This document shows positions 1 through 51,191 of a stretch of 64,000 nt of DNA, piece after piece. Origin of the DNA: Thermoanaerobaculia bacterium (GTDB lineage: Bacteria > Acidobacteriota > Thermoanaerobaculia > Multivoradales > JAIOJS01); contig DASYQD010000018.1 of NCBI GenBank assembly GCA_036005845.1, forward strand, positions 13,333 through 77,332. The letters run 5' to 3'. The notes below the pieces were generated by a model, which saw only the letters and a program-made list of their open reading frames with translations, ran no database searches and was not told where the DNA came from. The number at the start of each line of letters is the position of its first letter. The stretch's first letter is position 1. The translations under genes and the position numbers were made by a program.

Positions 1-497
1 AGCGAGATGTGGCGACCGACGGCCTCGGCGGCGGTGTAGCCGAACAGCCGCTCGGCGCCGGCGTTCCAGCTCTGGACGATGCCGTCGAGCGACTTGCGGA
101 CGATGGCGTCGTCCGAGGACTCGACGATCGAGGCCAGCAGGCGCGACAGCTCGCCGCGCTCGGCGGCGCGCGCATGGGCGCGCCGGGCCGCCTCGCCGAT
201 GGCGATGATGAGCGCGCAGGTGAACAGATAGGCGACGAGCCCCACCACGTTGACGACGTGGTCGAGGCTGAGCTGGCCCCGCGGCGCCATGAACAGCCAG
301 GTACAGGCGGGATAGCCGAGAAGCGTCGTGAGGAGCGCCGGACCCCAGCCGCCCACCCAGACGGCTACCGCGACGGCCCCGAAGAGAGTGACGAGGGGCA
401 GCGAATCGCCCAGCCACGGGTCGAGCAGCCAGCGCAGGCCGATGGCAGCCGCCAGGGCGGCGACGGCCAGCACGTAGGCGCGAAACGGGCCTCGCAC
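1..497 (-). CDS. PAS-domain sensor protein, probably a histidine kinase; N-terminal part only (gene runs off the window start)
   Basis: Manual translation of the minus strand from a GTG near 497 gives a hydrophobic N-terminus followed by a PAS-like segment ([43 protein letters not shown]). No stop codon occurs before position 1. Not in the ORF track because the stop is outside the window. Confidence 0.5.
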
Positions 498-609
498 GGG
501 GGTTGTCTCGCCCACGATCTTGCAAGGAGAAAGCCAGTCAGCCGGCCCGCGCCTCGAGAACGGCGGCGCCCCGCCTCGTGCGGGCTACGCCCCGATCAGA
601 GCCTAAGAG

Positions 610-1416
610 CTACTGCCAGAACTCGTCGCCGCCCGACGAGGCTGCCGTCGTCGACTCCTGCTTGAGCCAAGCGTCGAACTCGGCGGCCGGGTGGACGGTG
701 ACGAAGCCGCGCATCTTCGAGTGGCCGATGCCGCAGAGCTGCGCGCAGGCGATCTCGTAGTCGTACTTGGGGTCGCCGGTCTTCTCGCGCACGCCGGCCG
801 TGGTGAGCGTCGGTATGAACCAGAGCGGGATCGAGAGGCCGGGGATGGCGTCTTGCTTCACCCGGAACTCGTTGAGCATGAAGCTGTGGATGACGTCCTT
901 GCTGCGCAGCCGCACGATCACCGGCCGGCCGGCGGGCAGGTGGAGCTGGTTGACGGTGGTGACGTCGTCCTTGCCGTTCGGGTCCTTGCGGTCGAGGCCC
1001 AGCGGGTTGGTGGAGACGTCGACCAGCTCGGGCCTGGTGCGACCGAAGATGCCGTCGTTGCCGGCGTAGTGGATGTTCCAGGCGAACTGCTCGCCGGTGA
1101 CCTGCACCTCGAGCGCCTGGTCCTCGGGCGGGAACTTGTCGACGCGCTGCGACCAGAGCGGGATGGAGTAGCCGAAGAGCAGAATCAGCTCGGCGACGAC
1201 GACGCCCCACTCGACCCAGCGGGTGGCGTGCGTGCGCAGGCCCTCGTACTGCGCCTGCGGATGGCGCGAGCGGCGGAAGCGCACCAGCATGTAGAGGAAG
1301 AAGGCGCTCCAGCCGACGAACATGACGAACATCAGGATGTGCACCCACGTCGTCACGGCGTCGATGTCGTGGGCGTGGGCGGAGGCTTCGAGAGGCAGTC
1401 CGAGCCAGTTGCTCAT
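610..1416 (-). CDS. coxB: cytochrome c oxidase subunit II, aa3-type (CuA site, no haem-c domain)
   Basis: 268 aa with two N-terminal TM helices and the CuA motif H...CAQLCGIGHSKM. No CXXCH motif, so it differs from the caa3-type CoxB at 12525..13562. Confidence 0.9.
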   Translation of the reverse strand: MSNWLGLPLEASAHAHDIDAVTTWVHILMFVMFVGWSAFFLYMLVRFRRSRHPQAQYEGLRTHATRWVEWGVVVAELILLFGYSIPLWSQRVDKFPPEDQALEVQVTGEQFAWNIHYAGNDGIFGRTRPELVDVSTNPLGLDRKDPNGKDDVTTVNQLHLPAGRPVIVRLRSKDVIHSFMLNEFRVKQDAIPGLSIPLWFIPTLTTAGVREKTGDPKYDYEIACAQLCGIGHSKMRGFVTVHPAAEFDAWLKQESTTAASSGGDEFWQ

Positions 1417-1682
1417 GGCGTTGAGTCCTTGGATGCCGAGGGCGTTGGAGCGACGGCGTGTTCGTCGTTGGATGGTGCCGGCCCGCCGGCGGCAGCGGCG
1501 CGCAGCGCCTTGCGGCGCACGATCAGCACCATGCCGACGCCGCCGCCGAGCAGCAGGTAGGTGAGGCCGAGCAGGAAGACGATCGACAGCTTGGTGCCGT
1601 GCACCACCGGGTCCTGCGCGGCGCCCCAGCAGACGCTGCAGGCGAGCAGCATCTGGGTCTGCATCAAAGAACCAGTCACCAA
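1413..1682 (-). CDS. small 2-TM membrane protein inside the oxidase operon (function unknown)
   Basis: 89 aa with two predicted TM helices. It overlaps the stop/start of both neighbours (1413-1416 and 1676-1682), which suggests translational coupling within the cox operon. Confidence 0.4.
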   Translation of the reverse strand: MVTGSLMQTQMLLACSVCWGAAQDPVVHGTKLSIVFLLGLTYLLLGGGVGMVLIVRRKALRAAAAGGPAPSNDEHAVAPTPSASKDSTP

Positions 1683-1882
1683 GAGCTCACCTGGCGCGTC
1701 TTGCGCAGGAACCAGACCTCGTAGACGACGAGGCCCGCGGCGGCGCCGAAGGCGCCGAGCGATAGCGCCAGCCAGCCGCCGCCGCCGACGGCCTGGCGCT
1801 GGTCCCAGGCCCAGACGCCCAGCCAGAGCGCGAGCAGCACGGCGGCGCTGATGAAGATCACGTGGAATGCCTTGAGCGACAC
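1676..1882 (-). CDS. small 2-TM membrane protein inside the oxidase operon (function unknown)
   Basis: 68 aa, two hydrophobic helices. Lies between the coxIV-like gene and coxB. Confidence 0.4.
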   Translation of the reverse strand: MSLKAFHVIFISAAVLLALWLGVWAWDQRQAVGGGGWLALSLGAFGAAAGLVVYEVWFLRKTRQVSSW

Positions 1883-1892
1883 CGGTTCCGGC

Positions 1893-2234
1893 TCAGTGGA
1901 TGGGATTGATCTCGTTGAGCTCGGTGATGGTCGGCCCGAGCAGCACGCCGAAGAAGAAGAACACCGTCGCCAGCATGAGGATGAGGATGAGCTTGCGCTC
2001 CGAGATCAGGTGCATGAAGTAGCAGGCCACCAGCGACCCCTTCACCAGGGCGATGGCGAGGGCGACGAGAATGGCCGGCACCGTCGGCAGGTGCAGGTAC
2101 TTGAGCCCGACGGTCACCAGCGTCAGCACCATCAGGCTGCCGAACACCAGCATGTAGGTGCGGACGTGCTTCTTGAGGTCGGCGTGCAGGTGCGGGTCGC
2201 CCTGCTCGGCGGTGTCGATGTGCTGCATGGTCAC
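1893..2234 (-). CDS. ctaF: cytochrome c oxidase subunit IV (prokaryotic CtaF/CoxD family)
   Basis: 113 aa, 3 TM helices, immediately downstream of coxC. Paralogous to the product of 9786..10151. Confidence 0.65.
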   Translation of the reverse strand: MTMQHIDTAEQGDPHLHADLKKHVRTYMLVFGSLMVLTLVTVGLKYLHLPTVPAILVALAIALVKGSLVACYFMHLISERKLILILMLATVFFFFGVLLGPTITELNEINPIH

Positions 2235-2253
2235 CTCAGTGCGACATCTTCGT

Positions 2254-2877
2254 TCAGTGCGAGACCGGAGGCCCGAAGTTGAGCAGGTAGAGGACGGGGA
2301 AGAGGAAGATCCACACCAGGTCGACGAAGTGCCAGAACAGGCCGGCCACCTCCACCCGGTTGGCGAACTGCTGCGGGTCGGTCTGCATCATCTTGGCGCC
2401 GGGGAAGCCGAAGTAGAAGTTGACGCACATCCCGGCCAGCACGTGCAGCGCGTGCAGGCCGGTGAAGGTGAAGTAGCAGGCCATGAAGGTGCTGTACGAG
2501 GGCGGGTGGTGGTGCTCGAACTTGGCGGCGTACTCGAAGCTCTTGACCACCATGAAGACGGCGCCCAGGCCCACCGTGGCGCCCATGTAAAGCCGCAGCT
2601 TCTTGAGGTTGCGCTCCATCGCCGCCACCCACGACATCACCATCGTCACCGACGAGGTGATGAGCACGATGGTGTTGAGGGTGGCGAGCGGGATCGACAG
2701 CAGCTCCGAGCCCGCGCCCCACGCCGGGTTGCCGGTGCGCAGCAGGATGTAGCCGGCGAAGAGCGAGCCGAACAGCATCACCTCGGAGGAGAGGAAGAGC
2801 CAGATGCCGAGCTTGACGTTGTTGAGGCCGGTGTCCGGCCTCGCGTCGACGGTGTACGGGATTGCTGCCGTGGACAT
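2254..2877 (-). CDS. coxC: cytochrome c oxidase subunit III
   Basis: 207 aa with a typical COX3 polytopic profile (WHFVDLVWIFLFPVLY C-terminus). Confidence 0.9.
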   Translation of the reverse strand: MSTAAIPYTVDARPDTGLNNVKLGIWLFLSSEVMLFGSLFAGYILLRTGNPAWGAGSELLSIPLATLNTIVLITSSVTMVMSWVAAMERNLKKLRLYMGATVGLGAVFMVVKSFEYAAKFEHHHPPSYSTFMACYFTFTGLHALHVLAGMCVNFYFGFPGAKMMQTDPQQFANRVEVAGLFWHFVDLVWIFLFPVLYLLNFGPPVSH

Positions 2878-2886
2878 CTCAGCTCC

Positions 2887-4713
2887 TCAAGCGTGTGCGG
2901 GATGCGGAGTGCCCGGGATCGGCGACACCGTCTCCGGCCCCGGCTCGCTCTGCGGGAAGAAGTCGCCCGGATGGTCGGGCACGCTGTACTCGTAGGGGCC
3001 GCGGTAAGCGACCGGCTGCACCTCGAAGTTGCCGTGCGGCGGCGGCGACGGGGCGGACCACTCGATCGTCGTGGCGTCCCACGCGTTGGCGGGCGCCAGG
3101 GCGCCGTGGCGCTTGCTCCAGAAGAAGTTGATGATGAAGGGAATCTGCGACAGCCCCAGGCCCCAGGCCGAGAACGAGATCACCTTGTGCAGCCACAGCA
3201 CGTGCGCGGTGTGGGTGTAGCTGGCGCCGCCGTCGTAGAGCCGCCGCTGCATGCCGGCGAGGCCCTGGATGAACATCGGCATGAAGACGCCGTTGATGAA
3301 AACAAGACTGGGCCAGAAGTGCAGCTGGCCGAGCCTGGTGCTCATGTAGCGGCCGGTGGCCTTCGGATACCAGTAGTAGATGCCGGCGAAGAGCGCGAAC
3401 AGCGTCCCCGGCGCCACCACGTAATGGAAGTGGGCGATGACGTAGTAGGTGTCGTGGAAGTGGATGTCGGGGCTGGCGAGGCCGAGCGGCAGGCCGGTCA
3501 AGCCGCCGATGCCGAACATCGGCAGGAAGGCGAGCGCGAAGAGCATCGGCGGCGTGAAGCGGATCGAGCCGCCCCACAGCGACAGGATGAGGCAGGTGAG
3601 GATGATCACCGAGGGGATCGAGATGATCATCGTCGTGGTCTGGAAGAAGGTCGACATCACCGTGCCCATGCCGGTCATGAACATGTGGTGCGCCCAGACG
3701 ACGAACGACAGCGCGCCTATGGCGAGCACCGAGAAGACCAGCGGCCGGTAGCCCCACAGCGGCTTGCGCGTGTTGTTGGCGATCACCTCGGCGACGATGC
3801 CCATCGCCGGCAGGATCAGCACGTAGACCTCGGGGTGGGCGAGGAACCAGAAGAGGTGCTGCCAGAGCAGCGGCGAGCCGCCGCCGGAGACCTTGAGCAC
3901 CTGCCCGGAGACCACCAGGCCCTGCGGCAGGAAGAAGCTCGTCTTGGCGACGCGGTCCATGAGCTGCATGATGCCGGCCGCCTGCAGGGCCGGGAAGGCG
4001 AGCAGCAGCAGGAACGAGGTGACGAACTGCGCCCAGACGAAGAAGGGCAGCCGCCAGAAGGTGAGCCCCGGCGCGCGCAGCTGGATGATGGTGGTGATGA
4101 AGTTGACCGCGCCGAGCAGCGACGAGGTGATCAGGAAGAGCATGCCGAGGATCCACAGCGTCTGCCCGGTGGGGAGGATGTCCGAGAGCGGCGGGTAGGA
4201 GGTCCAGCCGCCCTGCGCCGAGCCGCCGGGGACGAAGAAGCTGCCGAGCATCACCACGCCGCCCCAGAAGTAGGCGTGGTACGAGAACATGTTGAGCCGC
4301 GGGAAGGCCATGTCGGGGGCGCCGATCTGCAAAGGCACGACGAAGTTGCCGAAGCCGCCGACGGCGAGCGGCACGACGCCCAGGAACACCATGATGGTGC
4401 CGTGCATGGCGCCGAGCTGGTTGTAGAACTCGGGCAGCATCGAGCCGCCGGGCATGCGGGTGTCGCCGAGGATCTTGCCGAGCAGCGGGATCGCCTTGCC
4501 CGGGAAGGCGAGGTTCCAGCGCATCAGCATCATCAGCGAGAAGCCGAAGAGCAGGAACAGCAGGCCGGTGAAGGCGTACTGGATGCCGATCATCTTGTGA
4601 TCGGTGGAGAAGACGTAGTGGCGCCAGAAACCGAGCTGGTGGTGCTCGAGATGCGCGTCGCCATGCGCGTGCGCCGCGGTCTCCGGGTGGGCGTGCGTCG
4701 AAACGTCGGTCAT
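2887..4713 (-). CDS. coxA: cytochrome c oxidase subunit I (haem-copper oxidase catalytic subunit)
   Basis: 608 aa with COX1 signatures (WFFGHPEVYVLILP, HHMF, conserved His ligands). Confidence 0.95.
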   Translation of the reverse strand: MTDVSTHAHPETAAHAHGDAHLEHHQLGFWRHYVFSTDHKMIGIQYAFTGLLFLLFGFSLMMLMRWNLAFPGKAIPLLGKILGDTRMPGGSMLPEFYNQLGAMHGTIMVFLGVVPLAVGGFGNFVVPLQIGAPDMAFPRLNMFSYHAYFWGGVVMLGSFFVPGGSAQGGWTSYPPLSDILPTGQTLWILGMLFLITSSLLGAVNFITTIIQLRAPGLTFWRLPFFVWAQFVTSFLLLLAFPALQAAGIMQLMDRVAKTSFFLPQGLVVSGQVLKVSGGGSPLLWQHLFWFLAHPEVYVLILPAMGIVAEVIANNTRKPLWGYRPLVFSVLAIGALSFVVWAHHMFMTGMGTVMSTFFQTTTMIISIPSVIILTCLILSLWGGSIRFTPPMLFALAFLPMFGIGGLTGLPLGLASPDIHFHDTYYVIAHFHYVVAPGTLFALFAGIYYWYPKATGRYMSTRLGQLHFWPSLVFINGVFMPMFIQGLAGMQRRLYDGGASYTHTAHVLWLHKVISFSAWGLGLSQIPFIINFFWSKRHGALAPANAWDATTIEWSAPSPPPHGNFEVQPVAYRGPYEYSVPDHPGDFFPQSEPGPETVSPIPGTPHPAHA

Positions 4714-26268: not shown

Positions 26269-26910
26269 ATGAGCGACAACGACCACCACCCCGACGGGAT
26301 AGCGAAGCGCGACAGCCTCACTCCGCTCAACGCCTGCGTCCACGCCGCGCTGGAGCACGGCGTGGGGCTGGCTCAGGCGTTCTTTGAAGGGCGCCAGCTT
26401 GACCCGTGGCTGTTCGCTCACATTGTGCGCTACGGGGTGCTGGAGCACCTACCGGACGCCATCGTCAACGTGGACGATTACGGCGTCACACGCAACGCCA
26501 TGTGCGGCGTGGAGATTCACGCTGACGGTTGCTCCATTCGGATCTGGAAGAAGCCCAGGGCCGAGGATGAGTATCTCCAGCCTCCAGGAGAGTCGGAGGT
26601 CCGCCAATCCTTCTACTGGCAGCAGATCCCTCTGCCTTTCGCAGTCGAGCAGCAGCTACCTCAGCCGGACAACTTGGCGTATGTCTGGGAAGCCTTGCCC
26701 TCCGGGACAATGAATCTGTTCCTCGTCAAGCCGAGCGGCATCGAAGGAATCTGGAAGCCGGGTCTATTCGAGTGGGCCGTTCCGGTGCCGCATCCGGCGG
26801 AGCTGGTCACCGTCGGTACCGACTTCCTCGAGGGCGACGAGGACGAAGATCTGGATATCGACCTGCCAAACGCGGGTTCTGGTGGCGGCGAGCCCAACGG
26901 CGGAGCCTAA
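26269..26910 (+). CDS. hypothetical protein with acidic C-terminal tail (213 aa)
   Basis: ORF begins immediately after the promoter. No recognisable family. Co-directional and adjacent to the XRE/ImmA-like gene. Confidence 0.5.
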   Translation: MSDNDHHPDGIAKRDSLTPLNACVHAALEHGVGLAQAFFEGRQLDPWLFAHIVRYGVLEHLPDAIVNVDDYGVTRNAMCGVEIHADGCSIRIWKKPRAEDEYLQPPGESEVRQSFYWQQIPLPFAVEQQLPQPDNLAYVWEALPSGTMNLFLVKPSGIEGIWKPGLFEWAVPVPHPAELVTVGTDFLEGDEDEDLDIDLPNAGSGGGEPNGGA

Positions 26911-26917
26911 GGCAGTC

Positions 26918-28024
26918 ATGGCGGCAGTCAACGGAGAACGCGTCAAGCAGGCGCGCGAGATACGAGCGCTTACGCAGGGTGAGCTTGCAGAGCGCATCGG
27001 AGTCTCGCAGCCAACCATTTCGCTCATCGAACAAGGAGCGCAGCAGCCATCCGAAGGGGTGCTGCAAGCGCTGGTGCTGGCGACGGGCTTTCCTGTGGGC
27101 TTCTTTCAGAAAGGGAAGGGGCCGGACTTTCCGTCGGGGTCTATGCTCTATCGCAAGTCGAAGAAACTACCGAGCACGCCAGCCAGTCAGTTGCGGCAGT
27201 CGGCGCGGCTTGCTCTGGAGCTGGTCCAAGCCCTCGGCACTCGATTCAAGCCGATCCCCGTGCGGATACCGCTGGTAGGCAGCGGTGATCCGATAGAGGC
27301 CGCGCATGTCGGCCGGTCGGTCCTGGGAGCATCGCCAGACGGGCCGATGACCGGAGTCATTCGGCGCCTGGAGCGCGCCGGGGTGCTTGTCGTATTCCTC
27401 CCCTCGGCGCCCGACGGATTCGACGGCTTCTCCGCTTGGTCCGACGAGGGCGACGGACACGAGAGGCGCCCAATCATTTGCCTTAAGCACGGCGTGCCGG
27501 GCGACCGTCTTAGGCTCACGGCGGCGGAGGAGCTGGGCCACCTGATGATGCATCAGGACTTCCTAGGCGGTTTGAAGGAGCTGGAGCAGGAAGCCGATGA
27601 GTTTGCAGGAGAGTTTCTATTTCCGCAGAGCGAGATGAAGGAGCAACTCAGGCTGCCGATAACACTCGCGCACTTGGGCGAGCTCAAAGCGCGTTGGGGC
27701 GTCTCCATCGCTGCCATCGCACACCTTGCCGAGCAGCGGGGATTGATCAGCGACCGCCAAAAGCGGTACGTGCGGGCAAAGCTGCATGATCGCGGGTGGC
27801 TGCATACGGAGCCGATCCATATCCCGGTAGAGGCCCCCAAGCTTTGGCGCCAGATGGCGGAGGGCATCTTCGGAGCGCCGGTTGACCATAAGCGCTTGGC
27901 GCGCGAGTTTGAGGTCTCCTCTGGCTTCGTTCAACAGTTGATCGAGGTCAACCGGCCGCTAGACGCGAGACCCATTGCTCCTAGCTCTCAGGTTCTTCTG
28001 CGCTTCGACCGCCGTCGCGCCTGA
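26918..28024 (+). CDS. XRE-family HTH fused to ImmA/IrrE-like (COG2856, M78-type) metallopeptidase domain
   Basis: N-terminal HTH (QAREIRALTQGELAERIGVSQPTISLIEQG) and central AAEELGHLMMH. The latter is an ImmA-like motif with the first His replaced by Glu. 368 aa from ATG 26918. Confidence 0.75.
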   Translation: MAAVNGERVKQAREIRALTQGELAERIGVSQPTISLIEQGAQQPSEGVLQALVLATGFPVGFFQKGKGPDFPSGSMLYRKSKKLPSTPASQLRQSARLALELVQALGTRFKPIPVRIPLVGSGDPIEAAHVGRSVLGASPDGPMTGVIRRLERAGVLVVFLPSAPDGFDGFSAWSDEGDGHERRPIICLKHGVPGDRLRLTAAEELGHLMMHQDFLGGLKELEQEADEFAGEFLFPQSEMKEQLRLPITLAHLGELKARWGVSIAAIAHLAEQRGLISDRQKRYVRAKLHDRGWLHTEPIHIPVEAPKLWRQMAEGIFGAPVDHKRLAREFEVSSGFVQQLIEVNRPLDARPIAPSSQVLLRFDRRRA

Positions 28025-28672: not shown

Positions 28673-28906
28673 ATGAAGACGAACGTCACGCTCAAGCTCG
28701 ATGCGGATCTCCTCCGCGAGGCGCGCGTGGTGGCAGCCGAAGAGGGGCGATCGATGAGCGCTCTTCTCACCGATCAACTCGAAGGCATCGTGCGCGAGCG
28801 GAAGGCCTTCGTTAAGGCGCGGCGGCGGGCACTTGCCCGTCTCCGAGAGGGTCTCGACCTCCAGTGGACACCGCCCGCATCGCGGGACGAGCTCCATGAG
28901 CGATAG
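28673..28906 (+). CDS. vapB: VapB-type RHH/AbrB-like antitoxin
   Basis: 77 aa (MKTNVTLKLDADLLREARVVAAEEGRSMSALL). Overlaps vapC by 11 nt. Confidence 0.7.
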   Translation: MKTNVTLKLDADLLREARVVAAEEGRSMSALLTDQLEGIVRERKAFVKARRRALARLREGLDLQWTPPASRDELHER

Positions 28907-29348
28907 ACACTTCGTCGACACCAACATCCTGATGTACGCCCACGACGCTGCCACGGGCGAGAAGCATCAAATGGCCCGGGCGCTGGTGGAGCAGTTGTGG
29001 GAGACGAGGTCGGGTGTCGTCAGCACCCAGGTCCTTCAGGAGCTGGCGGTCAACTTGCGGAGGAAGGCCAAGAAGCCACTCGATGCAAGGACGACTCGTG
29101 ACGTCGTGTCCGACTACCTTGCGTGGCACGTTGTCGTGAATGGCGGGGAGTCGGTTCTCGAAGCGCTCGATCTCGAAGCGCGGCATCGCATCTCTTTCTG
29201 GGATGCCCTCCTGATACAGGCCGCGAACGCTTCTGGCGCTGAGATCCTCTACTCCGAGGATCTGTCGGACGGCCAACGTTACGGATCGGTACGAGTCATC
29301 AATCCGTTTCGAGTGAAGGCCCGCGCCGCTCCGCCATCGCCCGGCTAG
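28896..29348 (+). CDS. vapC: PIN-domain toxin VapC
   Basis: MSDRHFVDTNILMYA...FWDALLIQAA, 150 aa from ATG 28896 (the track ORF starts 21 codons earlier). Confidence 0.85.
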   Translation: MSDRHFVDTNILMYAHDAATGEKHQMARALVEQLWETRSGVVSTQVLQELAVNLRRKAKKPLDARTTRDVVSDYLAWHVVVNGGESVLEALDLEARHRISFWDALLIQAANASGAEILYSEDLSDGQRYGSVRVINPFRVKARAAPPSPG

Positions 29349-46549: not shown

Positions 46550-46713
46550 GTGGCTGTTCGCAGGTTGACCAGGTGTACGTCATACGAGGGCTAGGAGCAT
46601 TCCCGCGCCGTGCCGCGCGCCCGCACAGTTCAGATCCGGCCGTCATCGCTACGACGCGAGCGACCTAGAACTGGAGCCTTTGAGACGCCAGCACTCAGAA
46701 CACCGCAGCGCTC

Positions 46714-47508
46714 CTATTGTGTCTCGGAGGCCGGCTGGTCAACACAAGCATACGGCTGGCACCGATCCCACAGATCCTCGAAATAGGTCTCGAAGAGCGC
46801 GTAGATAGAGGGTTGACCCTGACTCATCTTTCTGCACTCGATCACAGGTGCGTGCTCCTCGTTTTGCTTGCGCACGATGTAAGGTACGATAAAAAGTACT
46901 TCGTCCAAGAAGAAAAGCCGCCAGAGATACGGCTCCCGATGGCAGCGAACCTCGATGGCAATTCCTTCCATCACCAATGCCTGAATGTTAGTCAAAGTGT
47001 AGGCGACAGCCGCCATCCAACTCTCGTAGCTACTGCCGAGGTCCTTCGCCCGCTGCCGAGTGAATTGATCAGAGTTCTTTCCGGCGCACAGCACCCGAAT
47101 CGTTTCATCTGATCGTTTCTTCAGGCGAGCCGCATCGAATAGTAGCGCCTTATCGTGCCCTCCCAAGATGTTCCGCCCAAGTTGGATGAGGATTCGCGAG
47201 GTCTTTGCTCTCGAAAAGTTGTCTCGAATTGCGTTCTCGGCATGCCGAAAGTTCGGATAGAACCGCACAAAGCCGAAAGCACCTCCAGCTCGCCGCGCCC
47301 AGTAGGCAGACAGGCGATCGAGGAGTGCATCGCGGAGCTGTCGCCGCAGCGCGACTACGACGATCATGGCCAAAGTTATGCCGGTTGCGGCGGTTAGCCA
47401 AGGATCTCCAAGAGGCCTGCCAAACGCCTTCATTAGCGCGTAGACTACCGCCGCGAGCAAGGCGACTACCGCCGCAGAAAGGAGATCACTCAGAAGTTCT
47501 TTCTTCAT
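46714..47508 (-). CDS. 2-TM membrane protein with ~200-aa cytoplasmic domain of unknown family
   Basis: ATG at 47508 (MKKELLSDLLSAAVVALLAAVVYALM...) is preceded by AAGGG. 264 aa. Last gene of the minus-strand island operon. Confidence 0.5.
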   Translation of the reverse strand: MKKELLSDLLSAAVVALLAAVVYALMKAFGRPLGDPWLTAATGITLAMIVVVALRRQLRDALLDRLSAYWARRAGGAFGFVRFYPNFRHAENAIRDNFSRAKTSRILIQLGRNILGGHDKALLFDAARLKKRSDETIRVLCAGKNSDQFTRQRAKDLGSSYESWMAAVAYTLTNIQALVMEGIAIEVRCHREPYLWRLFFLDEVLFIVPYIVRKQNEEHAPVIECRKMSQGQPSIYALFETYFEDLWDRCQPYACVDQPASETQ

Positions 47509-48973
47509 TGCTGGCCCTTTGTTTGCGGAGCCAAAGAATCGCCGGTCGCGCATCGTACTGGCCCGTTCCAATCAGCTCTAAGTAATGCGACAGTGGCACA
47601 TGCTCCAGGCTTGGCCCTAGATGCGCGATAAAGTCATTAAGCGTGAGGCCATTTTCGTCGAGCATCTGCTGCAATAGCTGCCGCCCGGTCGCCACATCGG
47701 CAGTCTCAGACGCGGACGGTCGCGCTGGCTCTCGGACCTTGTAGTCTTCGTGGGACGCCTCGCCGAACTCTGCGACCGCGTGCATGCCGAGCGTCCGCGT
47801 CTGAATTTCTGCCAATCCGACATCACCGCCCCTCGCGGTCGAGGCAACCCAGTGCAACGACTGGTAACCATTACTCTTCGGGCGAGCGATGTAGTCCGAA
47901 AATCCCCGTGGACTGTTCCAGCGGGTCAAAAGCGCGCTTAGAACGTCAACAAACTTGTAACAGGTGCTTGGATTCCTGTCATCGATAACCGCTCGGTAGC
48001 CAATGCTGTCCCAGAGACCAGATACCGGGACTTCGTACCGTAGTGATTTCTGGTAGGCGCTGAAGACCGACTTCGTCCTACGCTGCAAGACGACACGAGT
48101 CGGTGACAACTCTGCAGCCGCGAGCTCAAGTGCCTGTTCCACCTCGCAGAGAAAGCGACTTCCGGGCAGGGCCTCGTCAAGGTCTTGGCGCGTCTCGGCA
48201 AATATCTGTGGATCGACTTCCGCAAATGCCAAATCGCGCAAGTCTCTCGCTCTGTCCCCGAAGCGGTGCTCCCCGACCAGAAGGGGCAGGACTCGGAGAG
48301 CGAAGCTCGCCAACTCAGCCCGCAAGGCTGTCGGCACTTCGAGAGCTGATACTTCCGAGACGGAGGCTACCACTGTGCTGAAGAAGAGAAGAATATAGAC
48401 GGCCTCCCTCTCTGCTTGGCTTGGATCGAGCGAGCTACGAAGCTGCTGCCGAAGAAAGCCCGCAGCATCGATGGCGGCGCGGGATACGGGCAGGTGTGGC
48501 GGCGGCGATTCGGCGGAAACCGATCGCGCCGCGCGCAATGCCCGGCGAAGGCTTTCCTGGAATGGTCCGTAAAAGAACGCCGCTATCCGGAGTCCAGCGC
48601 GCGCGCGCGCGGATAGCTCTCGAGTCGTCGATCCTCTCGCTTTGTGTGCGAGCTCGTGTCCGGCCAGACATAAAATTTCAAGAAGCTCCAAATCCAGCGC
48701 GAAGAAGCCGGGCTGAAAGCTGCTGGTGTCCGCGCCGAAGTCCATAAAAAGACGCCAGACCGCCCTAGACGAATAGAGAGGGAGTTTCAGGCCAGCCAAT
48801 TCCCTCAGCTGGATAGGGACCTGTCGAATTTCCTCGAGAAAGCCACCCTGGGGATAAAGCTCCCGGCAGAGCTCAGACTGCTCGAGCTCTTCCAAGTGCG
48901 CCAGTTCGCGGGCGAGCCAGGGATGATCGTTCCGCGCCACAGACAACCAATTGCGGTCTAAGGAGACAATCAT
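47486..48973 (-). CDS. fusion protein: N-terminal HEXXH metallopeptidase-like domain + C-terminal RelA/SpoT (RSH) nucleotidyl/pyrophosphotransferase domain
   Basis: ILCLAGHELAHKARG (HEXXH) at residues ~105-115. C-terminal DSIGYRAV.., GYQSLHWV, EIQTRTLGMHAVAEFGEASHEDYK match RSH synthetase motifs. 495 aa. Confidence 0.7.
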   Translation of the reverse strand: MIVSLDRNWLSVARNDHPWLARELAHLEELEQSELCRELYPQGGFLEEIRQVPIQLRELAGLKLPLYSSRAVWRLFMDFGADTSSFQPGFFALDLELLEILCLAGHELAHKARGSTTRELSARARAGLRIAAFFYGPFQESLRRALRAARSVSAESPPPHLPVSRAAIDAAGFLRQQLRSSLDPSQAEREAVYILLFFSTVVASVSEVSALEVPTALRAELASFALRVLPLLVGEHRFGDRARDLRDLAFAEVDPQIFAETRQDLDEALPGSRFLCEVEQALELAAAELSPTRVVLQRRTKSVFSAYQKSLRYEVPVSGLWDSIGYRAVIDDRNPSTCYKFVDVLSALLTRWNSPRGFSDYIARPKSNGYQSLHWVASTARGGDVGLAEIQTRTLGMHAVAEFGEASHEDYKVREPARPSASETADVATGRQLLQQMLDENGLTLNDFIAHLGPSLEHVPLSHYLELIGTGQYDARPAILWLRKQRASNEERTSE

Positions 48974-49117
48974 GCCGTCTCTATCTTGGGTCCAATCAGG
49001 TTATTGCTTGTTTGTTGTTTGCTCGAAGTCGGCTCTCGGTCAGGATGCTACAAACCTCTACGCGTGAGATGCGCGCCGATAGTCCTCAGCAAAGAACGCG
49101 GCCGGACTCAGCGCCGC

Positions 49118-49483
49118 TCAGGACATACTAGACAGTTGAGCCATGAGCGAAACGACCAATCCAGCGACCTCCTCGGCCTCGTGCCCACGCCCGCTAAAAA
49201 GATGGAACCGCTTAAAGTATTCTAGCACGTCGGATTTCTGCAGGCGCCGAGCAGAAAGAGCGTATGGAAGGTAGTTGACTGATACGCCTCTCAAAAGGCG
49301 CGTATAGCTCCTGGTGGTCAGCCGACGAGCGGCATACTGAACGAGAAAGGCCTCATGCTCGCTGAGAGCATGCTCGAGGTCGGCGATCGTTGCTACGTTA
49401 AACAAGAGAAAGTGGTCGGTGTGGCCTGCGGCAACACCAGATAGTACAAGCCTATCCAGGAGGACTGAAGCAGCCTCGGCCAT
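49118..49483 (-). CDS. hypothetical protein (121 aa)
   Basis: ORF lies between the two RSH genes and overlaps the upstream gene by 90 nt. Coding status uncertain. Confidence 0.3.
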   Translation of the reverse strand: MAEAASVLLDRLVLSGVAAGHTDHFLLFNVATIADLEHALSEHEAFLVQYAARRLTTRSYTRLLRGVSVNYLPYALSARRLQKSDVLEYFKRFHLFSGRGHEAEEVAGLVVSLMAQLSSMS

Positions 49484-50226
49484 CGCACGTCTATTCTAGC
49501 GACCAGCGGACTCGCCCGGATGAAGCGGTCGAGAGAGTCCGCATCAATTGTGACCTCGCCAGGACTGACCTGAATGTCACTATCCAAGGCGGCCCGATAG
49601 CCGTGCAATGTATCGCGAAGACGCGAAAACTCTTGATCAGCAAGCTCAAGAAGACCGGCAATCCTTGAGAACGCTCGCTGTGCCTGTCGCGGCACAGCAT
49701 TCCTGGTCTTGTATCCGAGATCATGGTGGATCTCGGCCCAGGAGTGTTGGAGAATGGATCTGATTTGTATCTCTGCCTTAAGGTCTCGAAACCGCCTATA
49801 CTCTGGAAGATCTATCCTGGATTCTCCCAGCGACACAACGTAGTGCACGGAGAGATACCCAAACCGGTCTGGATCCAAGATCGCTCTCTTGTCGACCGAA
49901 TTGTCAGTGTCCACTTCGAACTCTTCCTGTACAAGCTCTGCGATTCTGTCCACGTCGTCCGCAAAGTAGGTGATCAGGCGAATTCCGGCCAGGTCAGTGA
50001 TCTCGTCGAGCGATTGATACGCGGACGGATGTCTTTGTAGTTTTAGCGAGAGCGACTCGGCTGTCTTCGGACGTCCGGTTATTGAGTGAATTGCTGAAGC
50101 AGTGGGCTCTATGAGCCTTTGAAGGAGACTTGTCATCTCCGTAGCGAAGCGGGCGTAGATTTGGAACCTGTGCTGATACTCGCCAAGGATCGCCTCAGGG
50201 CGGCGGGGCGCCAACGACAGATTCAT
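49393..50226 (-). CDS. RelA/SpoT-domain small alarmone synthetase-like protein
   Basis: ITDLAGIRLITYF, GYLSVHYVV, LKAEIQIRSILQHSWAEIHHDLGYK are canonical (p)ppGpp-synthetase-fold motifs. 277 aa, no HD hydrolase domain. Confidence 0.8.
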   Translation of the reverse strand: MNLSLAPRRPEAILGEYQHRFQIYARFATEMTSLLQRLIEPTASAIHSITGRPKTAESLSLKLQRHPSAYQSLDEITDLAGIRLITYFADDVDRIAELVQEEFEVDTDNSVDKRAILDPDRFGYLSVHYVVSLGESRIDLPEYRRFRDLKAEIQIRSILQHSWAEIHHDLGYKTRNAVPRQAQRAFSRIAGLLELADQEFSRLRDTLHGYRAALDSDIQVSPGEVTIDADSLDRFIRASPLVARIDVRWPRLLQSSWIGLYYLVLPQATPTTFSCLT

Positions 50227-50277
50227 GACCTCAGCAAGGGATGGTCGGTGAGGCGTCGGCGGCCCGGCTGTAATCTG

Positions 50278-50317
50278 GGCCGCCGGCGGGGCTGCGCGGC
50301 CGCCGGCAGGGCTGCGC
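50278..50317. repeat. 20-bp tandem direct repeat x2 (GGCCGCCGGC[G/A]GGGCTGCGC) upstream of the RSH gene
   Basis: Two adjacent units differing at one position, 50-90 nt upstream of the start at 50226. Confidence 0.55.
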
Positions 50318-50889
50318 TAGCATTGCCAGTGAGAGCAAAATGATGATTGGGGCTGCCTGACATGTGCTTAGAGCACCACCAACGGAGGCGACAAGACCGG
50401 CGCACCCGGCCAGCGTCCCCCTTCTGCTTCCGAGAGAGTGACGATGTTGCCCATCCTACGGCGGCCAAATGCGCGTCGCTGAGACGAGAGAGGCTCGCCC
50501 GCTCTCCCATATGGCCTCGTGGCTGGCTTCTGCCATTCCTACTTAGACGGACGCGGGGACGCGATTTCCCCGCCGACGAAGGCCTCACCTTCGACGTGAC
50601 TGTAGTAGTTAGGAGTCTGCGCGAGGTTCTTTGTCACCTGCGTGCGCTGCCCCGCGTTGACCGAGGGCCTGAGGATCCCGAGGCGCGATGCATGGATCGG
50701 ACGATTTGCACAGCCTCTCGGGAGACCTCCCGTTTCCACTAGACGACGGAGCCTGCGGGCCTTGGCAGGATTCCGTGGCCGGAGGTCGCCTTTCCGGCGA
50801 TCTTTGGTCGCCTCGGCTCGCTCGCGGAGAGCGCGCTGAGAGCCTGGTGTTTATTGCTATCCGCGGACGGGCCTGCCGGATCAGGATCC

Positions 50890-51191
50890 GCCGGGCGGAC
50901 TTGCTGCATGGGATGTGATTTCTGGTGCGGCCCGCCTCGGCGCGCGGGTGTTCGGCGTCAGCACAGGACACTCCCTATCAGCGGGGGGGCGTCGAGCGCC
51001 TGCACCTGCCTTACGAGCTGCTCAGCGATGCGCGGCTCGAGCTCGCCGGTGCGCTTCGGTTGCCGACCTTATCGGTGGCGGGGCACACCGTGATCAGGCG
51101 GCTGACTCTGATCGGACGGCACGGTCGGATCGAGACCTGCTTGTACCCGGTCTTTCTGCCGGACGCGGATGCCCACAGCGTCCTAGGGTAG
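50890..51191 (+). pseudogene. 5'-truncated, frameshifted peroxiredoxin (Bcp/AhpC-TSA family) remnant
   Basis: C-terminal frame: ERLHLPYELLSDARLELAGALRL...RRLTLIGRHGRIETCLY. An upstream adjacent frame reads ARVFGVSTGHS. The catalytic Cys region is absent. Confidence 0.45.

Follow-up and report, generated by a model that had tools for sequence, protein, structure and literature searches.

A 495-amino-acid protein encoded in the 64,000-nucleotide stretch of Thermoanaerobaculia DNA analysed here (the window) is, on balance, likely to be a divergent and shortened descendant of a long RelA/Rel-type RSH, and not a fusion of a peptidase to an RSH enzyme, because every part of it with detectable homology points to RelA/Rel-type RSHs. 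It would represent a rare natural RelA-like enzyme of the 'N-terminal-half-only' kind, which has lost all of the ribosome-sensing domains and gained a conserved membrane partner. Sequence context suggests that the two genes travel between genomes as a low-GC cassette, and that the pair probably forms a mobile module of two genes with a ribosome-independent alarmone synthetase at its core. Such a module would show a housekeeping stress enzyme turned to a new use as a mobile element, and would provide a test case for alarmone synthesis under the control of the membrane rather than the ribosome.

Synthetase domain, C-terminal tail and domain loss

The gene and the parts of its product discussed in this section are as follows.

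47486..48973, minus strand: RSH-superfamily gene, 495 amino acids (open reading frame list, exact protein on record and Pfam RelA_SpoT match)
47729..48223, minus strand: SYNTH (pyrophosphokinase) domain, residues 251-415, catalytic residues intact
47528..47701, minus strand: family-specific helical tail, residues 425-482, with probable homology to the AH domain

The reading frame is present as originally called, and its product is identical to the NCBI protein record HEV8238137.1 (VGS57_02070) from a Thermoanaerobaculia MAG. Pfam RelA_SpoT (PF04607) matches residues 299-414 (E 5.5e-18, 65.7 bits against a cut-off of 27 bits), which places the protein in this family above the curated threshold, and the protein has the SYNTH fold. 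The RSH sequence blocks first recognized near the C terminus also held up: in an alignment with 29 long RSHs, RRTKSVFSAYQK, WDSIGYR, RPKSNGYQSLH, EIQTRT and AEFGEASHEDYK occupy columns that are invariant or nearly so. Residue roles tested were the ATP-binding Arg/Lys (RxKxxxSxxxK), the Mg-binding Asp (DxxGxR), the stacking Tyr (GYxSLH) and ExQxRT; R299, K301, S305, K309, D322, R327, Y370, H374, E389, Q391 and R393 are invariant across the 29 long RSHs and the orthologue described below. By these residues, the SYNTH domain looks catalytically intact.

The enzyme would move the beta,gamma-pyrophosphate of ATP to a ribose 3'-OH. Its acceptor loop, RPKSNGYQSLH, agrees at every position with the long-RSH consensus of the alignment, and for this reason the acceptor would most likely be GDP or GTP, yielding (p)ppGpp. 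Upstream of this loop long RSHs carry one of two variants, EXDD or RXKD. The window protein has RGFSDY here and its orthologue RGYTDY, which match neither variant and suggest that acceptor preference may differ from that of long RSHs.

Small alarmone synthetases (SAS) such as RelP and RelQ consist of the SYNTH domain alone, at about 200-250 amino acids. We rejected a single-domain identity of this type, given a length of 495 residues, about 250 residues upstream of SYNTH and far better matches to long RSHs. In phmmer searches against the PDB, the closest solved relatives were the long RSHs RelA and Rel (E 2e-16 to 1e-12, with alignments beginning at residues 214-219), whereas small alarmone synthetase structures matched weakly (E 0.005-0.2). 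Every search was topped by long RSHs, at about 34% identity. Homology also covers sequence that precedes SYNTH, reaching long-RSH positions 171-200: from about residue 213 hhalign aligns the protein with the final hydrolase-domain helices and the central helix bundle (residues 213-412 on long-RSH 171-363, probability 99.5; residues 220-413 on 178-364, probability 99.8).

In long RSHs the link to the ribosome is made by the TGS, zinc-finger/RIS and ACT/RRM domains, and an alpha-helical (AH) domain comes after TGS. The window protein has no Pfam match to TGS, and just some 80 residues, aligned with AH, follow SYNTH; ZFD/RIS and ACT/RRM are absent, as the protein stops at residue 495 and no sequence is left for them. 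Synthesis would thus be free of ribosomal control. The tail is kept in all three family members and aligns by hhalign with long-RSH residues of about 504-563 (probability 80%, E 1.4e-5). A second hhalign comparison gave a probability of 71%, an E of 3.8e-5 and a score of 37.4; the best of 20 column shuffles scored 20.2, and the reversed control 14.3. On this alignment we identify the tail, with moderate confidence, as an AH-like segment. Its assignment to TGS was rejected, as this rested on a coincidence of MAFFT columns and hhalign puts the tail on AH.

In very large collections, only two members of the family were found at full length, along with one fragment from the C terminus. The one full-length orthologue found (P0165, contig L002) has 496 residues and is 40% identical to the window protein over residues 172-493 and 34% globally. 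A search with the full 495-residue protein returned long RSHs exclusively, and was not exhaustive: it missed P0165, which is its own cluster representative, and the window protein itself, whose 90% cluster has as its representative a 55-residue peptide that looks unrelated. DNA scans of genome, metagenome and viral contigs with the RSH protein or its C-terminal alignment found no relatives, and tblastn of the protein against plasmids found long RSHs only, over residues of about 218-456.

The loss of several domains, an unrecognizable N terminus and a frameshift in the adjacent RSH gene could be read as signs of a decaying, non-functional long-RSH paralogue. We consider this very improbable, since intact frames of 495 and 496 residues in two genomes at this level of identity, together with the retention of the catalytic residues, the C-terminal tail and the partner gene, indicate purifying selection.

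The N-terminal region and its HEXXH motif

Upstream of the synthetase domain the protein divides into two parts, the first of which contains the motif.

48461..48973, minus strand: orphan helical N terminus, residues 1-171, predicted all-helical and without homologues
48224..48460, minus strand: conserved helices, residues 172-250, matched to long RSHs by hhalign and phmmer
48644..48658, minus strand: HELAH pentapeptide, residues 106-110, read from the translation

The original prediction was of a zinc metallopeptidase of the ImmA/IrrE/SprT type at the N terminus, fused to an RSH effector and acting as its switch. A protease-switched alarmone synthetase would be a new regulatory principle, if true, but the evidence is against it. 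The protein does contain one HExxH and just one, HELAH; it lies in a predicted helix, as this reading would have it, and is the only such string in about 17.5k residues of window open reading frames. However, HExxH arises in 2.1% of composition-preserving shuffles of the protein, so that one occurrence among the roughly 47 frames scanned is close to chance expectation. Additionally, the single full-length orthologue on which the conservation of the motif can be judged has no HExxH in its N-terminal half and reads LLRHVFQ (GLLRHVFQNNSS) at the aligned position. No peptidase profile of Pfam or NCBIfam matched the whole protein at E<=1 or its N-terminal 216 residues at E<=10, and BLASTP found no meaningful resemblance between these 216 residues and the M78 protein of the window.

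The AF2 models place HELAH within a long helix of an all-alpha region, and no peptidase fold is among the fold matches listed for them, at an N-terminal pLDDT below 50 that does not amount to a confident fold. In a MAFFT alignment HELAH falls on or beside the 'LLHDVVED' HD-motif helix of long RSHs, and an hhalign extension likewise puts it at this helix, with an alignment confidence of zero. Profiles, orthologue and predicted helices largely refute the fused peptidase, to which we assign hardly any probability. On sequence grounds HELAH is best regarded as a lineage-specific pentapeptide inside a helix, a five-residue coincidence with no catalytic role. Of the proposed fusion of two families, the RelA/SpoT nucleotidyltransferase stands and the zinc metallopeptidase does not; we rejected the fusion in favour of a long-RSH derivative lacking TGS, ZFD and ACT. 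The fusion of XRE and Peptidase_M78 domains noted in the window's other low-GC stretch is present (26882-28024, Pfam E 6.2e-16), but the generalization to both islands of a protease-type switch paired with an effector fails for the RSH island, where the peptidase half is unsupported.

Residues 1-171 have no homologues among 1.84e9 representative proteins, where phmmer with residues 1-250 gave just two matches, both spurious, and the N-terminal 216 residues match no Pfam family at E<=10. Identity to the orthologue is just 19% over residues 1-171, compared with 32-45% over the remainder; residues 172-250 align with it without gaps at 32% identity and are modelled by AF2 at a pLDDT of 58-77. There is no Pfam match to HD_4 or HD in the protein, and residues 1-215 gave hhalign probabilities of <=1.2%, which are not significant, against hydrolase-domain profiles built from all long RSHs, a RelA-like subset and an HD-active subset, in local and global mode. 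Two AF2 runs predicted only helices and no beta-strand before residue 294, with a pLDDT mostly below 50 at residues 1-171. A single-sequence run of the whole protein had a mean pLDDT of 37 and was usable at the C-terminal helices alone, and the Rel-like N-terminal half of the second model is not independent evidence, as its input alignment contained long RSHs. From collinearity and length, which are the grounds for reading residues 1-212 as a decayed hydrolase, we infer that the fast-evolving residues 1-171 may be a hydrolase (HD) domain that no longer has an intact HD metal site, which would give residues 1-170 a hydrolase origin.

A membrane partner on a low-GC insert

The RSH gene lies within a low-GC segment that holds three genes.

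46600..50300: low-GC insert with three genes, delimited by GC and GC3
46714..47508, minus strand: partner gene VGS57_02065, 264 amino acids, a called gene directly downstream of the RSH gene
49118..50226, minus strand: SAS-type gene, extended at its C terminus and interrupted by a frameshift, recognized by a family HMM in two frames

The low GC that had been ascribed to this stretch was confirmed, at 0.55-0.60 against 0.67-0.72 around it; GC3 of the insert genes is 0.61-0.65, compared with about 0.9 for the surrounding genes. The pair is low in GC relative to its flanks in both contigs long enough for testing (the window and L002). The insert is not marked out by flanking repeats of att type, tRNA genes, Rfam matches, or promoter or terminator signals.

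The partner gene starts 23 nt inside the RSH gene, with a Shine-Dalgarno-like site, AAAGGG. Its product has two predicted N-terminal TM helices followed by a cytoplasmic domain of about 200 residues, and hydropathy peaks at residues 8-26 and 36-54 recur in 3/3 partner homologues. The two further homologues found each lie immediately downstream of an RSH orthologue, and the pair is therefore present on three contigs: the window, L002 (with a 4-nt overlap) and L003. The partner has no match in Pfam, the PDB or PADLOC and no similarity to known antitoxins, defence proteins, or effector or sensor domains. Its conserved block HREPYLWRLFF.D..LF.VPY may resemble a PLD-like or DUF5919-type domain, for which the Pfam search returned nothing. 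Neither a tblastn search of plasmids and phages with the partner nor a scan of viral contigs with the partner alignment found relatives.

The third gene of the insert encodes a second RSH. One of its frames matches the SAS family HMM over positions 7-247 (E 1.5e-117), and the next frame matches it over 264-360 (E 2.7e-13). Homologues of the gene product are of about 360 residues, and the gene matches the candidate-defence profile PDC-S33. The 121-residue frame at 49118-49483 was rejected as a separate gene or antitoxin, being the out-of-frame C-terminal part of this SAS gene.

We propose that the RSH gene is translationally coupled to that of the two-TM protein, and that the pair would have been acquired by horizontal transfer as a module of two genes. 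Most likely the membrane partner would restrain or trigger the synthetase, in the manner of an antitoxin or a sensor, or else respond to its product, and the module would act by arresting growth or by setting off a stress or defence response. We advance only tentatively, as a minority possibility, that this is a new mobile system in which the membrane protein gates a toxic alarmone-producing or tRNA-modifying enzyme on envelope or phage cues, or is itself a membrane effector activated by the product. If the effector option were true, CBASS/Pycsar would have an 'alarmone-signalling' counterpart in this system.

Two more specific versions can be weighed against these data. A toxSAS-like toxin, with the N-terminal 170 residues as a novel, unrelated and fast-evolving trigger sensor, a SYNTH domain that pyrophosphorylates tRNA 3'-CCA or makes (pp)pApp, and the membrane protein as antitoxin or immunity factor, appears unlikely. 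It would fit the conserved overlapping bicistron on low-GC inserts, an N terminus far more variable than the rest and the adjoining RSH gene with its PDC-S33 match. The catalytic Asp and Tyr are also found in tRNA-modifying toxSAS (10.1101/2021.04.30.441581), and for this reason are uninformative on the acceptor. Less likely still is a CBASS/Pycsar-like arrangement, in which a nucleotide signal made by the RSH on infection or stress would be bound by the cytoplasmic domain of the two-TM protein and lead to membrane damage. The gene order, with the enzyme translationally coupled to a following two-TM protein on a mobile low-GC insert, is what such a system would have. Against this, the partner lacks homology to known effector or sensor domains, no relatives were found in viral, plasmid or phage collections, and housekeeping RSHs already make (p)ppGpp, which could serve only poorly as a private signal if it is what this enzyme makes too.

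Relation to known RSH systems

The best sequence and fold matches of the window protein are long RSHs (E. coli RelA 5iqr/5kps, B. subtilis Rel 6yxa/8acu and M. tuberculosis Rel 5xnx), with which it has in common the SYNTH catalytic residues, the acceptor loop, the helices linking hydrolase and synthetase and the AH-like tail. The nearest matches are proteobacterial RSHs (P0001-P0011) that themselves lack the HD dipeptide, with YLVYAC where others have LLHDVVED. Unlike long RSHs, which are of about 730 residues, the window protein has no HD domain recognizable by profile and lacks TGS, ZFD/RIS and ACT/RRM, and unlike the genes of housekeeping long RSHs its gene overlaps that of a membrane protein on a low-GC insert.

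RelA 1-455 is an engineered, constitutively active N-terminal fragment of RelA. The window protein resembles it in joining a putative pseudo-hydrolase to a synthetase and in missing the ribosome-binding C-terminal half, and by this analogy would be predicted to carry out ribosome-independent, potentially growth-inhibiting synthesis. It differs in being natural, in its diverged N terminus, in keeping an AH-like tail and in having a dedicated membrane partner. With the window's XRE-M78 protein, of the ImmA/IrrE Peptidase_M78 type, the likeness is the H-E-x-x-H string alone; the window RSH has neither the profile match, the motif conservation nor the predicted mixed alpha/beta fold.

The toxSAS enzymes (FaRel, FaRel2, PhRel and CapRel) are single-domain and of SAS type (PMC7229694, 10.1101/2021.04.30.441581). 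The pair described here appears similar in combining an RSH enzyme, a conserved bicistron, mobile DNA and plausible growth arrest, but its enzyme is derived from a long RSH, and its two-TM partner is unrelated to known antitoxins. Long RSHs are known to have shrunk through the loss of domains in the RickSpo/RickRel-type derivatives, which are now single-domain after secondary loss (PMC7229694) and so set a precedent. The window protein belongs to another lineage and, unlike these, keeps its N-terminal half and AH-like tail, and has a membrane partner.

The synthetase half and its long-RSH origin

The RelA/SpoT-superfamily (RSH) protein examined here is already deposited in exact form (HEV8238137.1, VGS57_02070, Thermoanaerobaculia MAG) and also occurs on a JGI contig. 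Its gene and the features considered with it are as follows.

Features of the window discussed in this section
47486..48973, (-): RSH ORF, 495 aa
46714-47508, (-): partner gene, 264 aa, downstream of the RSH gene with a 23-nt overlap
49118-50226, (-): RelQ/YjbM-like small alarmone synthetase (SAS) gene with a C-terminal extension, same insert, split by a frameshift
about 46.6-50.3 kb: low-GC insert carrying the RSH ORF, recognized by GC composition
26882-28024, (+): XRE HTH fused to Peptidase_M78 (ImmA/IrrE), in the window's other stretch of low GC, Pfam E 6.2e-16

The C-terminal RSH motifs described in the original prediction are present in the ORF product, and its aa 299-414 match Pfam RelA_SpoT with E 5.5e-18 and 65.7 bits, where the cut-off is 27 bits. 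The best solved-structure matches were long RSHs, the multidomain RelA/Rel-type enzymes (RelA 8fr8, E 2e-16; M. tuberculosis Rel 5xnx, 8e-15), aligning aa ~214-436 with RSH positions ~160-436; SAS structures reached E 0.005-0.2 only. When the protein was aligned with 29 long RSHs and its orthologue, the catalytic columns R299, K301, S305, K309, D322, R327, D360, K366, N368, Y370, H374, E389, Q391 and R393 were invariant, and the acceptor loop, RPKSNGYQSLH, was the same as the long-RSH consensus in this alignment. Judged by these alignments, the RSH half is genuine and looks catalytically active.

Profile-profile comparison with the N-terminal halves of long RSHs placed aa 213-412 on RSH positions 171-363 (probability 99.5), and a two-member family profile placed 220-413 on long-RSH 178-364 (probability 99.8). 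Thus, the final hydrolase-domain helices and the central helix bundle mark the start of homology, upstream of the point at which single-domain synthetases begin. The C-terminal ~60 aa, GRQLLQQMLDENGLTLNDFIAHLGPSLEHVPLSHYLELIGTGQYD, form the best-conserved family-specific block (three of three members) and align with long-RSH residues ~504-563, in the alpha-helical domain after TGS (probability 80%, E 1.4e-5). A second comparison with this domain gave probability 71%, E 3.8e-5 and a score of 37.4; the highest score among 20 column shuffles was 20.2, and the reversed control reached 14.3. Neither TGS, ZFD/RIS nor ACT/RRM has a counterpart in the protein. These comparisons show what is, by homology, a long-RSH-derived enzyme with an intact synthetase site, lacking all ribosome- and tRNA-sensing domains.

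The HELAH motif and the orphan N-terminus

The original prediction saw a zinc-metallopeptidase-like HEXXH domain fused to the synthetase; the ORF, the motif and the RSH half are all present, but the peptidase half found no support. The single HExxH is HELAH, aa 106-110 (nt 48644-48658). No peptidase family matched the whole protein (Pfam or NCBIfam, E<=1) or its first 216 aa (Pfam, E<=10), and BLASTP against the window's XRE-Peptidase_M78 protein gave no meaningful similarity. Two structure predictions consisted entirely of helices up to aa 294, with HELAH inside predicted helix 90-112, although confidence in this part was low (pLDDT around 40). HExxH arises in 2.1% of shuffles of the protein, and HELAH is the sole instance across about 17.5k aa of window ORFs, of the order that chance predicts. 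The region reads CLAGHELAHKARG here versus PLMGLLRHVFQNNSS in the 496-aa orthologue (L002:1223-2713), the sole full-length orthologue found. An ImmA/IrrE/SprT-type peptidase is thus not supported, with no profile match, no meaningful M78 similarity and a motif missing from the orthologue; non-conservation of HEXXH in that one protein makes the strongest case against it.

The XRE-M78 fusion invoked alongside it is genuine by Pfam, but its zinc motif is AAEELGH rather than HEXXH, with Glu in place of the first His, so that this peptidase, too, may lack activity or be atypical. Close by, at 28833-29348, is a PIN-domain protein.

The first ~170 aa had no homologue among 1.84e9 representative proteins and no significant match to hydrolase-domain profiles, and share 19% identity with the orthologue, against 32-45% in the rest of the protein. 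The region spans 171 aa here and 172 in the orthologue, a length and collinearity compatible with a decayed hydrolase domain. Both MAFFT and a zero-confidence greedy hhalign extension put HELAH (window) and LLRHVFQN (L002) on or beside the 'LLHDVVED' helix, and matched the conserved YILLFF to the 'RVVLIKLADRL' helix. Should this placement be correct, the 'HE' of HEXXH would plausibly be a vestige of the HD dipeptide, and the remaining hydrolase metal ligands would plausibly have been lost. No His occurs within aa 76-105, and under the putative placement the LADRL Asp position holds a hydrophobic residue. The structure model of this half is of low confidence, and its input alignment included long RSHs.

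The membrane partner and the low-GC insert

The insert has a GC of 0.55-0.60, against 0.67-0.72 in its surroundings, and a GC3 of 0.61-0.65, against about 0.9 for neighbouring genes. tRNA genes, flanking repeats, Rfam elements and consensus promoters were sought at its borders, and none delimits it. Its upstream edge (50227-50925, about 700 bp) holds no compositionally supported ORF and contains a 20-nt tandem duplication at 50278-50317; Rfam and promoter searches of this edge gave no matches. The neighbouring SAS gene, whose homologues are about 360 aa long, matches HMM positions 7-247 in one frame but positions 264-360 only in the following frame; it is a pseudogene, or else the assembly contains an error. 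PADLOC candidate PDC-S33 matches only its RSH core.

The partner's ATG is preceded by an AAAGGG site. Two hydrophobic helices (aa 8-26 and 36-54) are flanked by positive charges, and the other ~200 aa are probably cytoplasmic. Searches of Pfam, NCBIfam, PADLOC and PDB with the partner gave no matches. Its cytoplasmic domain, which may resemble PLD-like/DUF5919 domains, carries blocks strongly conserved with homologues P0161 and P0162 (RILIQLG..GG.D..LLF, HREPYLWRLFF.D..LF.VPY and YFE.LW).

Just two partner homologues occur in a 5.8e9-protein collection, both directly downstream of an RSH orthologue. Contig L002 carries, in this order, a long-RSH C-terminal fragment, the 496-aa RSH and a 259-aa partner, the last two overlapping by 4 nt; contig L003 carries the C-terminal fragment of a third orthologue, then a 263-aa partner. 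The L002 pair, like that of the window, is low in GC (0.46-0.48 versus 0.55-0.59 in the flanks), and the pair thus behaves as a horizontally acquired two-gene cassette. Scans of genome, metagenome and viral contigs, and searches of plasmid and phage collections, gave no relatives. The representative of the 90%-identity cluster that contains the RSH protein is a 55-aa peptide (P0164) that looks unrelated to it, which explains why the homology search returned no self match, so that a lack of matches in that search calls for caution.

On L002 (Logan contig, 1-3489) the pair is an insert that follows a canonical long RSH gene at a distance of 56 nt; the fragment of that gene on the contig extends from the C-terminal end of SYNTH via TGS to ACT. 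The upstream flank is present on two contigs, and on each the cassette adjoins another RSH gene, which may reflect coincidence, integration preference or a functional link.

Proposed activity and relation to known RSH enzymes

The catalytic Asp and Tyr also occur in tRNA-modifying toxSAS (10.1101/2021.04.30.441581), and thus tRNA or adenine nucleotides could also serve as acceptors; we infer GDP/GTP because the acceptor loop fits the long-RSH consensus. With GDP/GTP, the enzyme would transfer pyrophosphate from ATP to the 3'-OH, yielding (p)ppGpp. RelA truncated at its C-terminus is constitutively active, and for this reason a natural N-terminal-half-only enzyme would need other control. The translationally coupled membrane protein would be the obvious candidate, as inhibitor or sensor; it might instead be an effector of the enzyme's product.

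A non-exhaustive full-text search of the literature gave no account of this architecture or of the two-TM partner. That the pair might be a novel RSH module tied to the membrane, with a role in growth arrest, defence or signalling, is a speculative and rather doubtful suggestion. The protein is, on its sequence matches, a member of the RSH superfamily. Compared with long RSHs, it lacks TGS, ZFD and ACT and its hydrolase domain is not demonstrable, so that it departs from their architecture; it also departs from that of single-domain SAS. The RickSpo/RickRel groups provide a precedent for domain loss from long RSHs (PMC7229694).
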